Shown piece after piece: positions 10,356 through 42,299 of a stretch of 64,000 nucleotides of DNA. Below the pieces are notes generated by a model, which did no database searches, was not told where the DNA came from, and was given only the letters and a program-made list of their open reading frames with translations. How positions within the stretch are numbered: position 1 is the stretch's first letter; every line of letters begins with the position of its first letter. The position numbers and the translations under genes were made by a program. The stretch is from Callorhinchus milii. Its lineage: Eukaryota. The stretch lies in the NCBI RefSeq assembly GCF_018977255.1, contig NW_024704742.1, positions 27,654,001-27,718,000 on the forward strand, given 5' to 3'.

Positions 10356-10364
10356 ATATCCTTT
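10356..10364 (+). promoter_or_regulatory. U12-type 5' splice site (U11/U6atac recognition)
   Basis: ATATCCTTT begins exactly where DIAPH homology stops. Confidence 0.9.
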
Positions 10365-11239
10365 TACAGATGATAGATGATAGGTTTTGAAAGTCACATT
10401 AATTAATCGGGAATACATTTTTTTTTCTTGGCAAAGGGCAGGCAATTGTGTCTTCTCACTTCTATATAAAGCTCTAGTGATCAATGGGATAAACACCTCT
10501 GCCAATTTCTTTTCCCCCCTCTCCGGGGAAAATAGACTTTTTTGTAAAAAGAAACACACAAAAATGTCACCATCTGCGAACAATCAAAGCCTTAATCTGC
10601 GTGTGCATCCAATTTGCTGCATCCAACTGTGTTATCCAGATATGGTTCCAGTTGACATTGTCAATTTGTTTCATTCACTAAATATATTAATTTGTTTCGG
10701 TTTTCTTTCCCAGTATCAAATATTTACTCATATTGTCCTTTCTTTGCCAGAAAAAAAACCTTTAAGTGTGAACTTCATTCTATCATATGGTGTGAGGTAA
10801 CGCTTTATGGAAATAAGTTTTAGAAGCAGAATAATGAGTGTTAATGGAGCATTTCATCCTGCCGTTTCAGTGTAAAGGACCGTAAATGAAGCTTGGTCTT
10901 GCTTAATTTCTCAAAATGTGAAAGTAGTAATTTTGGTCTCTTGCTCCTCTAAATCATGGAAGTGACACGAGCTTGTTGTGTTGTGAAATGTTTCTGTTCC
11001 TGACAGAAAGAAGAATTGATACACTGGTTGAAATTTCACCTGGATTGGATGTAGTGTCAGAGGTCAATGGATATAATAATAATATTCACTCTGTTCTACA
11101 TACAAATGGCAGAACAAGCAACTTGGGAATGAAAAATCCTTTGATTTAGATGCATTTTGGAACATAAGCATGCAACAAATGTGAGAATGTTGACCCATGA
11201 TATTAATAATATAATAACAATTCACCTGAGTGCCCATTT

Positions 11240-13200
11240 ATAAGGAACACAGAAACAGGAATTGTCCTATCAAGCCTGCTCTGCATTAAAAGTTTTTACT
11301 CCTTTTGTACCATTACTTCCCAAGTATTTAGGTATCTTTTAAAAGTTTCAATTAATTCTGCACTTATGGCTTTCTTGAACCCTTTGTGTGAAGAAATGCT
11401 GTCTGCTTCCACTTTTAACCAGTTTAGGTCTAATTTCAAGATTGTGGCTTGTTTTGGATTCTCAATTGACCTTGTCCCTTTTTTGTAAATGGTTCAATAG
11501 GACTGCACCTTAACCTCTTCAACTCGAGAAACCTAAATGTGCTCAGTCTCTCATCATAGATAAGCCATCTTCTTTCATCAATCTGTGTCTCTCTGCAATT
11601 TTCTGCATTGACAGTTCACTGCAGCTGGGTGTCATCTACAAACTTAGACATTTCCCCTTTATGCCTAGATCAAGTTATTAATCTATAAAATGATAACACA
11701 GAGAACCATGTACAGATCTCTGGAGGACACCACTCTTGTCTCTGTTTGCATTTGGAGATTGGTCCTTTTATCCCAAACAAATTTTCCATCCAATTCCGTG
11801 CACCTCAACATTCAGTTAACAATCTGTTATCTGGTACCTTATCAAGTGCCATCTGGAAATTCATGTAGAAGATATCAATAGCTCCTGCTATATCTACTAT
11901 CTTGATATGGTTGTCAAAGAACTCCATTAGCTTATTGATACTTGGCTCATCTTTTACAGACACATCTCTCTGAGCAGTGAACTGTCCCTCTGGTTCTCCT
12001 TTATTCTGTCACTGATAATGGATTCCCATCATTTGTCCATTACTGATGTCAAACTCATTGGCTTTGTTACTTAATTTGTCACTTCCTTCCTTCTTTAATA
12101 ATAAAGTCATGTTCAGAACTCTGCAGCTCGTGTACTGTCCCGCACCAGGCTTCGGGACCACATCACTCCCACCCTCGCTCGCCTCCACTGGCTCCCCATC
12201 CCCCAGAGGATCGATTTCAAGATCCTCATCCTCACCTACAAGGCCATTCACGGCCTTGCTCCCTCCTATCTCTCCGACCTACTATCCCCCTACCTACCTG
12301 CCCGTACCCTCCATTCCTCTGGCTCCGGTCTGCTCCACATCCCCCGCCCCAACCGCCCTACCATCGGTGGCCAGGCCTTCAGCCTCTCAGCCCCGAGGCT
12401 CTGGAACTCTATCCTCCAGTGCCTTCGCCGCCTCCTCCCTTTCCTCCTTCAAGGCCGGTCTCAAGATCTTTCTCTTTGACCATGCCTTCAGCTCCCCTCT
12501 CGACTCTCTATCCCCTTCTCGCTCCCTCTCTCCCTTCCCTCCCCTCACCCTGACCATTTTCCCCCTGCTCGGGTCCTGATCCAACTGTACAGAGCCGTGG
12601 GACGTCCTCCTGACGTGAAAGGCGCTCTATAAATGGAATCTTGTTGTTGTTGTAGTTTGCTGCCTTCCAATCTTCCAGTATTGCTCCAGGATCCAGAGAG
12701 CTTTAAATGGTTACAACTAATTCAACTCCAATTTACTTGTCAATTTCTTTTAATACACTGTAGTGAACATCATCAGGGTCAGAAGAATTGTCTCTCTTCA
12801 GCCCCAATCATTGATACATTATTTTGTTTATCCCAAACAATTTTCCATCAATTCCATGCACCTGAATATTCAGTTAACAATCTCTAATCTGGTACCTTAT
12901 CAAGTGCCATCTGGAAATTCATGAGAAGATATCAATAGCTCCTACTCTATCTACTATTTTGATTTGTCTGACAAATAACTATTATCTCATAATCGCTGTA
13001 TGCTTGCCTTCAGTAGCCTCTAGTATTTCCTGTACTTCATATAACATATCCTTGACCTCCAGCATGAAGATGGAAGTAAAGTATTCATTTAGTAGTTTCT
13101 CCATGTCGACACTCTCTATCATTGTCATTCACCAATCTGTTTGAATGAGCCCTACCTCCTGTTCCTAAATGAGACATTTTATAGGCTTTAATATATTTAA
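11240..13200 (-). mobile_element. Highly decayed CR1, interrupted by an L2 and carrying an internal duplication
   Basis: gtgtcatctacaaactt (antisense of KFxDD) and aagtattcatttag (antisense of LNEYF). Confidence 0.6.
12110..12652 (+). mobile_element. L2 LINE 3' fragment
   Basis: ctccactggctccccatcccccagaggatcgatttcaag ([13 protein letters not shown]); ends ggcgctctataaatggaatc(ttg)n. Confidence 0.9.
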
Positions 13201-15297
13201 ATATAAATGAGAAATTATTTGCTTTGGTAGCAAAAGGTGAAGACTCAACTGCGTAAACATCCCCTTCATCTTAATTGTATTTGAGAAAATAAAGACAAAA
13301 CAAGCCCTTCCATTTACAGCACTGATCAGACCATAACCTGCTCTTACTGCAACAAACTGCAAGAGTGAGCCTATAGCGATATTATTGGCCAAGTTTGAGA
13401 GCCATACGTTAAGCTTGTCCAAACCAGATGTCCTTACAAACATCAACTTATTTAAGATTGGCATTTGAGGATAAAAGTAAAGGTTAAAATGGCTCTTCCC
13501 TTCTTGTATTTTGGTGCAATCTCCAGTGTCGGAGGGAAATGATGTTTAATTTTATTTTTGCCAGATTTAGGCAGAGAACATGTGCTTGCCATTGTGAATT
13601 AATTATCCCATTTGTCTATTTTCTGCCCAATTTGGAATCAATCTGCGATTCTTGCAGTTAAGAATAGAGGTAAGTATGTCCCACCGACTTAACTTTTGCT
13701 ACCGACGTGCATGTCATTTCAGGCAGCAGGAGGTATTTTTCGTGTGGGACTGAAATGGCTAAAGAGTGCAAATGAACCCCCATCATTTTGAACTTTAAAC
13801 TGGATGATAATTGGTTACTTCTTGGTGTTTATTTTTGTGCGTGCGCCCCGAACAAGAAAAATTGGAGGGAGTGGTTTCTGAGTTTCTTCTGAAGCTTGCT
13901 GGTTAGATGCATATTGAATCACAATTCAGTTGTTAACAGCTGAAGAAGGCTGGCATGTCCTAATGTCTGGTTTCAACACAGGGTATAGGATTTTTAAAAT
14001 TTGGAAAAAAAAGCATCGAAATCTCGATACCTTGTTGCAGTTGTACAATTCATGTCTTGAACAGCAAACAGTCACAGCATTTTGAGCCCTGGAATTGGAA
14101 AGAGTTTGAAGTGTGATGGGTCTTGTGGTTCTGGAGTCTGAAAGCCTGTATGCTAAGGAACAGCAATGGTTCTGGGTACAATGGGGTGGAGGAATGAAAA
14201 CTAATTGGTGAATTCTGTTCCACGAAGTTAACAAATTAGATTTTTTTATTGCTCAGTATTCAGCAAAAAAGTTGAAAATAAAGAAATTTCATCTGCTGTA
14301 TAGGAGAGACTCGTTAGTCAGGGCAGGGATTGTAATCTGAAACTGTAAATGTAAAGCATAACAGTATTTGTGTCATTTTGTGGGTAAATTTACATTGTGG
14401 AAATAGCATGCTTGTTTAGCTTCCACAATTATTCCACACGGTCAATGCTAAGACAGTGAGGTAGCATTTTGCATTGCTACCATTGCATTTTGTTAGTGGT
14501 TTCACTAACTAGCAGCTCAGTATCGCTGACGGGGAAATCCTTTTGACAGTAAGTTAACAGCTGACTGACTTACGGGAACCTCACTATTCACTTTCAGTGT
14601 TTGAAAGCAGGGATCCCATATATTTTTTGATTCCATGAATTTGCTGATCCCGTATATTTGCCGGGGCTTTCCTCTAATTAGTTAGCAGCTCTGAACGGGT
14701 GAATATTTATGAGCTGCAGGCAGAAACCCAATGATTTTGCTCCTGATTGTGATATTAAACCATTGCACAACAATCAGAATAAATCACAAGATCACAAGAT
14801 TGGTTTGGGTGATGAAGGCTCTTTGTCCATTTGGTCTCATTCCTCCAGAATACTGACCCTACCAACTTTCTATTGTATCAAGCTGTTTTTTTTAAAAATG
14901 AGTCCAGTGTTCTGACTTTAGCCACCCTTACTGGAAAACTGTTCCAGTCATTAATCACTCTCTGGAAAAAGAAATACTTCCTGGTGTCTGCCCAGAAATT
15001 GCCCTTTGCAACTACAGCTTATACTATCTTATTTATCTGTCTTGGTGCATCCTAAAGCATTGTTCTGGGTTTACATTTTAATCTCATTTGACATTTTTTA
15101 TACCTCTAGAAGGTTCACTTGTTGGCAATAATTTCACCTGTGTGGAGTTGAGAGAATTCGCAGAAAGTTTGGCACAAGACAGGGGTTCAGTATGGGTGCT
15201 CAACACGCCCTCGTACAAGGATAGTAGACAATAAGTGGAACAGAATGGAGTACATGGGACAAGGTTGCAGAACAGTCTCTTTGGAATCATTGTTGTA

Positions 15298-41574: not shown

Positions 41575-41645
41575 TGACACACACATATATACCCACACAA
41601 AGCCAAACACATACACATATGCCTACACATATACCCACACACATA
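41575..41645. repeat. Imperfect (CA)n microsatellite
   Basis: Visible ca/cata run. Confidence 0.8.
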
Positions 41646-42278
41646 ACCATTGGCCAACCAACAGCAATTGTCAGAAAAAATAACAGTAAATATGGCATCT
41701 CGTACCAGCCGGAAAAAGTGCTTCTTCTCAGGACACTGAGTAAGACTCCTCTGAAGAATTGCATGTAACGTCACGTTGACCAACAAGAACTTGTTTGACC
41801 TGAGAGCATGATTGCTCCTTTATTTTAATACAGACTTAGTTGCTCTTTGAGAAATAAGAGACCACCCATTTGGTGTGTGTTATCAAAAGATAAATTATAG
41901 AAAGCATGAGCCGAGTTGTGATATTGGTTGGAGGCTGCTGATTTGTGATTAACACCCAGCTCTGCTGGAACAATAAATCCCTGATATCACAGTGGAGCAC
42001 TGCAGGCAAATTACCTAACCTTGGGTGACAATTCATCATCAAGCAGACACTCAGTCATCATTTCGTGGTTGAACTTATCTTTGAAGTGGAATGTATTATT
42101 TGGGGGCGAGACAGGGGCGAGAATAGACTCCAAAGATGCTATTTTTGCAAAGTTATCTGTTGATGATGTATTTATTTTAGAATTGTTACCAACTTTTCTC
42201 GGACTGCCTGAAATCCTTGGAAATGACCAGACATTGCAGGTTTATGCCTTAAGCAAACACCGATTTCCTCACAGTTTT

Positions 42279-42288
42279 TTTTCTTGAC
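42279..42288 (+). promoter_or_regulatory. U12-type branch point sequence
   Basis: TTTTCTTGAC versus consensus TTCCTTRAC, with typical short spacing to the 3' splice site. Confidence 0.75.
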
Positions 42289-42299
42289 GTTCCCTGTAA

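Follow-up and report, generated by a model that had tools for sequence, protein, structure and literature searches.

The locus described here raises the question whether an intron that opens with a minor-spliceosome (U12-dependent) signal can close on the dinucleotide AA, in a gene whose relatives carry AC at the same place. The window analysed is a stretch of 64,000 nucleotides (nt) of the Callorhinchus milii genome (G000:C1:27654001-27718000), and the element in question is the interval 10356-42299 on its plus strand, which separates two coding exons of a diaphanous formin (DIAPH) gene, here called exon A and exon B. The analysis leads us to the view that this interval is very probably a genuine A-type intron of the minor spliceosome, the counterpart of the conserved AT-AC intron in the FH3 region of DIAPH1, DIAPH2 and DIAPH3. 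The type and the position of the intron are already known; what is new is the AT-AA case in this shark DIAPH gene.

Boundaries and splice signals of the intron

Positions are those of the window. The features at the two ends of the intron are as follows.

10356..42299, plus strand: very probable U12-type (A-type) intron with AT-AA termini, phase 2, 31,944 nt
10356..10365, plus strand: U12 5′ splice site ATATCCTTTT, the same letters at all four DIAPH paralogs of the genome
42281..42288, plus strand: predicted branch-site sequence TTCTTGAC, with 42287 as branch A; consensus TCCTTAAC
42298..42299, plus strand: terminal AA of the intron, AC in three paralogs at equal spacing

In the window letters exon A ends with ...GGAATTAGA at 10355, and ATATCCTTTT begins at 10356. 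The final 19 bases of the intron are TTCTTGACGTTCCCTGTAA; the intron end ...CCCTGTAA falls at 42299 and is followed from 42300 by AGATGTGAAT. The codon is split as GA|A, that is, in phase 2. ATATCCTTTT agrees with the extended 5′ splice site consensus /ATATCCTT and stands exactly where coding homology stops. Counted from branch A at 42287, the last intron base lies at a distance of 12 nt, and TTCTTGAC is thereby placed within the range for minor branch sites (10-15 nt upstream of the 3′ splice site, with an optimum of 11-13 nt according to Turunen et al., PMC3584512). Between the motif and the 3′ splice site there are 11 nt, GTTCCCTGTAA, with no clear pyrimidine tract, and a run of eight Ts adjoins the motif on its upstream side.

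A branch pattern that tolerates wobble pairs, TYYTTRAY, is present 41 times on the plus strand of the window (6.4e-4 per base). Within the final 100 nt of this intron it is present once, 12 nt from the end. The significance of the signals thus comes from their combination: a donor at the break in homology, a lone TYYTTRAY 12 nt from the other break, and the same layout in three paralogs. A preliminary description, prepared from the letters of the window, had proposed these coordinates with an exact U12 donor, phase 2, AT-AA termini and an end of the intron 12 nt past branch A; all of this is correct in the window letters, AT standing at 10356 and AA at 42298-42299 in the assembly.

Exons and reading frame

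The protein encoded by exon A was used in a search and gave one 100% match, the NCBI entry 'protein diaphanous homolog 1-like [Callorhinchus milii]' of 1568 amino acids (aa), referred to as P0003. The coding features in the window are listed below.

4228..4338, plus strand: upstream coding exon of the FH3 domain, VACMQ...QLLP, located by tblastn of P0003, with flanks cag|GTG and CCA|gtgagt
4339..10236, plus strand: ordinary GT-AG intron between the upstream exon and exon A
10237..10355, plus strand: exon A, KLKIIENEELQ...GIRMEL and the GA of the split codon, Drf_FH3 profile positions 80-119
42300..42416, plus strand: exon B, the A of the split codon, DVNEVYQ...GDYYV and CG, Drf_FH3 profile positions 120-157, followed by gtaaga

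Exon A is preceded by ...ttacggcag, and exon B opens with A GAT GTG AAT. P0003 up to the junction covers positions 1-119 of the Drf_FH3 profile and exon B starts from 120; the two are consecutive, which bears out the seamless ..IRMELE-DVNEV.. join that had been claimed. With the donor fixed at 10355|10356, exon B starts lying 9-15 nt from branch A were tested. The frame is open for 42297, 42300 and 42303, and among these 42300 alone gives the ungapped ...ELE-DVNEV... sequence. When exon A is joined after the AG at 42300-42301, a stop is reached after three codons.

P0003 matches the Pfam families FH2 (3e-115) and Drf_FH3 (3.4e-43), both above the cut-off, and Drf_DAD with 25.2 bits, slightly below its cut-off of 27.3. 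The N-terminal GTPase-binding domain, Drf_GBD, was not found in P0003; the N-terminus of this model falls beyond the window and is perhaps not complete. On sequence grounds the gene is a diaphanous-related formin, and the missing Drf_GBD match leaves the reading of the intron unaffected.

Conservation of the intron and predicted pairing with U12

Four DIAPH loci were identified in the C. milii genome: C1, which is the gene described here, C13, C15 and C4. GA|ATATCCTTTT is found at the same codon position and in phase 2 at all four loci, and at all four the branch A of a TYYTTRAY sequence lies exactly 12 nt from the intron end. The paralogs C13, C15 and C4 have TCCTTAAC, TCCTTAAC and TCCTTAAT as branch sites, AC ends, and introns of about 1.0, 1.6 and 1.8 kb. 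The donor, the phase and the spacing from branch A to the end are therefore identical in this intron and its paralogs, whereas the paralogs, with AC termini, branch sites of the form TCCTTAA(C/T) and introns about 1.0-1.8 kb long, contrast with AA, TTCTTGAC and 31.9 kb here. The genome was also searched for a second copy of exon B, as a possible retrocopy, and none was found.

The preliminary description had stated that DIAPH genes carry a minor intron and had proposed a comparison with a minor-intron listing. Such a listing contains the orthologous introns of human DIAPH1, DIAPH2 and DIAPH3 at the same codon, as AT_AC in its 'U12 A-type' sheets and with donors ...GGA|ATATCCTTT (PMC8280824), and a review counts 100% of diaphanous-related formin genes as minor-intron genes (PMC6865273). 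The statement was therefore accurate. Each of human DIAPH1-3 has, in the same sheets, a second A-type intron further downstream (PMC8280824).

The U12 small nuclear RNA (snRNA) gene of the same genome was detected with 133 bits. The two deviations of TTCTTGAC from the consensus, C to T at position 2 and A to G at position 6, correspond to G-U wobbles with the U12 snRNA of the same species, and the four Ts upstream of the motif could contribute A-U pairs to the duplex. A generic duplex scan, in which U12 nt 10-30 were paired with windows of 40 nt, had no power to discriminate: the real sites came only within the best 17-39% of intron windows, and in this intron TTTCCTCAC, 28 nt from the end, was favoured. 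A fixed-register comparison was used for this reason. The predicted duplex with U12 nt 17-28 has -6.0 kcal/mol and 9 pairs here and -6.5 kcal/mol and 6 pairs in each paralog, values that make a plausibility argument and no discriminating test.

The predicted splice junction in assembled contigs

Exon B was found complete (8/8 sampled words) in seven sequencing runs of the same organism, none of which is recorded as RNA. In three related organisms, B, C and D, 3 of these 8 words were present. Contigs from runs X1 (2013), X3 (2022), X4 (2025, genome-sized) and X9 (a related organism) were compared with positions 33100-42600 of the window. In run X1, a putative RNA run, a contig of 762 nt (depth 22.3) aligns by its letters 306-425 to 42299-42418 without mismatches. 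In run X3, also putative RNA, a contig of 405 nt (depth 33.3) aligns by letters 259-378 to the same positions, again with 0 mismatches. The other letters of both contigs match nothing on 33100-42600. The contig of the DNA run X4 is continuous through 41963-42600. Since the matching parts of the contigs of runs X1 and X3 end at the edges of exon B while the contig of run X4 runs through, the former two contigs appear to be spliced.

On the right, 42418 lies beyond the end of exon B by two matches that are due to chance. Among the junctions compared, exon A (...TTAGA) joined at 42300 is the only one to predict a left edge at 42299, because the last A of exon A equals A42299. A join of exon A after the AG predicts 42302, and an acceptor at 42303 predicts 42300. 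A left edge of 42300 is likewise expected if either of the two extra exons of the NCBI model described below, X1 or X2, were joined after the AG, and model exon X2 would in addition produce a visible joint. The putative RNA contigs of two studies therefore have, at 42299, the left edge predicted for the junction that the preliminary description expected in transcripts.

The bin 33100-33416, which contains model exon X2, and the single-copy intron bins were left uncovered by runs X1 and X3; this observation carries no weight. A protein search for shorter fragments (56 matches) yielded no transcript-derived fragment of this paralog. A contig of run X9, which comes from the related organism C, aligns to 36612-38032 of the intron and shows 157 differences and 36 positions in gaps; thus the relative shares at least that single-copy part of the intron.

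The NCBI gene model and read-through of the donor

The preliminary description had foreseen that predictors restricted to GT-AG introns would mis-model this region. The structure of the NCBI model was read by tblastn of P0003 on the window, and it differs from the structure given above in the following elements.

10356..10377, plus strand: read-through of the donor, E-YPFTDDR, with TGA at 10378
10714..10796, plus strand: extra model 'exon' X1, unconserved, no Pfam family
33160..33296, plus strand: extra model 'exon' X2, single-copy DNA, unconserved, no Pfam family
42300..42301, plus strand: rival AG, the U2-type acceptor of the model; with the U12 donor it gives a frameshift to a stop

For the entry into exon B the model relies on the AG at 42300-42301. 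As TGA comes right after the read-through, the first junction of the model cannot be GT-AG. The result is an insert of 80 residues between Drf_FH3 profile positions 119 and 120, with no Pfam match. The predicted mis-modelling is thereby borne out. P0003 and 119 retrieved DIAPH proteins were aligned with MAFFT. In the columns of the insert 73 of these proteins are empty, 39 have 1-4 residues and 7 have 8-43 residues; among the 120 aligned proteins P0003 alone has the full insert of 80. Every insert that is not empty starts with Y.

The signature of the read-through, E-Y-P (the translation of GA|ATATCC) immediately following the conserved motif L-[DE]-x-[IV]-R-x-E-[LM], was counted in two sets of retrieved DIAPH models.

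'Near' set (P0003 included): E-Y-P read-through 47, proper junction 69, no motif 4, total 120
'Shorter' set: E-Y-P read-through 12, proper junction 27, no motif 17, total 56

Overall, 59 of the 176 models (P0003-P0178) read through the donor, often with 1-43 spurious residues thereafter. Automated DIAPH models of birds, turtles, lizards and teleosts commonly mis-handle the same minor donor. The occurrence of E-Y-P in these models also shows conservation of the donor throughout jawed vertebrates. The public protein carries 80 spurious residues in its FH3 domain and the record needs correction, and the E-Y-P signature offers curators a simple flag for read-through of an ATATCC donor. A minor-intron catalogue that takes annotated introns as its starting point would probably lack this one, as the annotated donor is 22 nt away.

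Within model exon X2, ATATCCTTCC at 33274-33283 is a second U12-like donor, in phase 2 and in frame if joined to 42300. Such a join predicts a contig edge at 42300, and an edge of this kind was not seen in runs X1 and X3. The pattern [AG]TATCCTT occurs 8 times on the plus strand of the window, and the ATATCCTTCC donor is probably a chance occurrence.

Intron content and extent of the gene

Two repeats of the intron are listed here.

12112..12657, no strand assigned: interspersed repeat of 545 bp; other parts of the genome have at least 39 copies of it at 94-96% identity
22016..22341, no strand assigned: repeat with a transfer RNA (tRNA)-like head, probably a short interspersed element (SINE), Rfam tRNA match at 22024-22086

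When positions 10400-30300 were used as query, 95 matches were obtained in the genome, including the 545-bp element and several other repeats. In the last 9.5 kb of the intron 15 of 30 depth bins exceed ten times the summed contig depth of single-copy bins in DNA run X4, a rough measure that gives no copy number. The description of the intron as filled with transposable elements is thus right in qualitative terms. The young 545-bp insertions suggest that the expansion of the intron is recent in part. None of the 16 intron open reading frames (ORFs) of at least 110 aa, the longest having 186 aa, gave a Pfam match above cut-off. A match to NleE in one intron ORF had 17.1 bits against a cut-off of 27 and was taken as chance.

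ORFs of up to 186 aa, none with a Pfam family, overlap the element at 12112-12657. The Rfam tRNA matches at 22024-22086, 50303-50374 and 53937-54008 (37.5-41.8 bits) are probably heads of tRNA-derived SINEs and not tRNA genes; the one at 22024-22086 sits in a repeat with other genomic copies. Elements of extremely high copy are present at 36270-36586, 38172-38805 and 41025-41341, with summed contig depth to about 1e6 in the DNA run. Copies of them near 38426 and 41224 are oppositely oriented, and these elements are abundant in RNA-like runs too. The next intron has two stretches of distinct composition: 46001-48000, with a guanine plus cytosine (GC) fraction of 0.54 and a skew of -0.26, and 52001-54000, with a GC fraction of 0.50 and a skew of +0.38.

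The exon that follows exon B is absent from the window by tblastn of P0003, and the downstream intron is therefore longer than 21.5 kb. The FH2 exons of the same gene are located at C1:28.11-28.24 Mb, and the gene thus extends over more than 577 kb. Another A-type minor donor, the second in this gene, was observed at ...FVEKMT|ATATCCTTTC (L017 ~1684, about G000:C1:28241486), and is homologous to that of the second A-type intron of human DIAPH1-3. Residues ~400-1080 of P0003 form an FH1-like region that is rich in proline and has a length of roughly 700 residues. It is far longer than in the retrieved DIAPH1 proteins (about 1100-1280 aa in total) and may be partly mis-modelled.

Discussion

A scheme for the removal of this intron can be drawn from the signals, in which both the identity of the spliceosome and the order of changes are inferred. 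The donor ATATCCTTTT would be recognised by U11, and TTCTTGAC would pair with U12, leaving A42287 bulged out. The 3′ splice site would then be picked by its distance of 12 nt and not by an AG, with the consequence that the intron ends in AA. In the simplest history the terminal base changed from C to A in place in this paralog, the branch site drifted by two transitions compatible with wobble pairing, and insertions of repeats made the intron about 20-30 fold longer.

Several observations weigh against the conclusion that this is a genuine A-type minor intron. TTCTTGAC agrees with the consensus TCCTTAAC at 6 of 8 positions. With 2 occurrences in the window, where 1.18 are expected, the donor motif ATATCCTTT by itself is no rarer than chance. 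Runs X1-X3 are three small runs regarded as putative RNA by guess, and we infer the join of exon A to 42300 from a one-base contig edge together with the reading frame. The contig of run X4 has one difference in its 638 nt (41963-42600) at an unlocated position, and with this reservation AA at 42298-42299 is likely to be present in a second individual. The AG at 42300-42301 stands 2 nt downstream of the intron end and 14 nt from branch A. Given an AG so near branch A and the error-prone choice of 3′ splice sites in U12 introns, a frameshifted by-product is possible.

These observations have to be set beside three other explanations of the same region. If the NCBI model were correct, 10714-10796 and 33160-33296 would both be real coding exons, the interval would contain three U2-type introns, and exon B would start from 42302. 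This is the public record, both extra exons have good AG acceptors and GT donors, and the AG at 42300-42301 is preceded by a pyrimidine-rich stretch. Against this, TGA at 10378 forces a non-canonical first junction on the model, and the insert breaks Drf_FH3 at 119/120, lacks any Pfam match and is present in 1 of 120 DIAPH proteins. Moreover, the contigs of two studies start at 42299, whereas model exon X1 or X2 joined to 42302 predicts 42300 (and a joint in the case of X2), and the same E-Y-P artefact recurs in 58 other models. We consider the model very improbable. It could also be argued that we are dealing with an ordinary minor intron of the AT-AC kind, whose last base, 42299, reads A through an error of assembly or in a private allele, as three paralogs and three human orthologues end in AC and the lone difference in the run X4 contig could lie anywhere in 41963-42600. 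However, there is no reason why the single unlocated difference among 638 nt should fall at base 42299, 42298-42299 lie outside any homopolymer, and the drifted branch site fits a relaxed 3′ region better than a single base-call error. The chance that the A is spurious or private is accordingly very slim.

The AG itself gives rise to the remaining alternative, in which the minor spliceosome mostly uses 42300-42301, most transcripts are frameshifted, the AA join is a minority product and the gene is becoming a pseudogene. The branch site has this AG within its reach, and U12 introns are described as error-prone in the choice of their 3′ splice site (PMC3584512). Yet the assembled contigs of runs X1 and X3 begin at 42299 and not at 42302, AT-AG combinations are disfavoured (PMC3584512), and all exons seen retain open frames and conserved domains. 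Predominant use of the AG is, on this evidence, most unlikely. The preferred reading remains an A-type minor intron with AT-AA termini, removed by a join of exon A to 42300.

The relationship of the gene to other DIAPH genes was addressed with a quick IQ-TREE analysis of 31 proteins, in which DIAPH2 and DIAPH3 were thinly sampled and this protein had a long branch (0.54). The protein was placed as sister to the whole jawed-vertebrate DIAPH1 clade. Support by the Shimodaira-Hasegawa-like approximate likelihood ratio test (SH-aLRT) was 98 for the DIAPH1 clade excluding this protein and 92 for this protein with DIAPH1 against DIAPH2/3. Judged from this tree, the gene may be a fourth ancient DIAPH paralog that is absent from the sampled bony vertebrates. 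The suggestion in the preliminary description that the intron could limit expression of the formin is speculative. A more far-reaching proposal would be that such a fourth paralog, so far undescribed, has an intron weakened in three ways and that its removal, dependent on the minor spliceosome, has become rate-limiting for expression; this we hold to be unlikely. The three weakenings would be the change from AC to AA, the branch site with two wobbles, and the lengthening by 20-30 fold through young repeats. If true, the gene would provide a natural experiment on how much decay a working A-type intron tolerates.

The preliminary description had called AT-AA termini rare. In absolute terms this holds, but AT-AA is the commonest non-canonical subtype of minor intron in animals and plants; non-canonical termini make up ~3.8% of conserved animal minor introns (Larue and Roy 2023, PMC10639083). 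Introns with non-canonical termini are functional, with reduced efficiency (PMC3584512), and in human cells A-type (AT-AN) introns show more retention and depend on CENATAC (de Wolf et al. 2021, PMC8280824). Full-text literature searches combining DIAPH with minor intron and U12 returned none on sharks, and those combining Callorhinchus with minor intron returned a general review only. The intron adds a switch from AC to AA between ancient paralogs with the branch spacing of 12 nt preserved, and the preserved spacing fits the rule that the minor spliceosome selects the 3′ splice site by distance. The finding raises no new question.

Comparable cases are known. Tables 2-3 of Sheth et al. 2006 contain AT-AA minor introns, 3 from human and 4 from mouse, and switches between AC and AA in orthologues are recorded there, for example in MSH3 (PMC1557818). 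RASGRP4, with AT-AA in both human and mouse, and MSH3, in which human has AT-AA where mouse has AT-AC, are of the same subtype as the intron described here. They are other genes, whereas here the AC/AA switch is between ancient paralogs and the intron is very long. As for length, human DIAPH2 has as its second A-type intron one of about 100 kb (chrX:97247840-97348115), which shows that minor introns of tens of kb exist in DIAPH genes, although it lies in the FH2 region and is AT-AC (PMC8280824). The closest counterparts are the human DIAPH1/2/3 introns at the same codon. These share with this intron the phase, the donor ...GA|ATATCCTTT, the gene family and the A-type class, and differ from it in their AC ends, their lengths of 0.6-1.9 kb and their branch sites TTCCTTAGC, TTCCTTTAC and TTCCTTAAT (PMC8280824).

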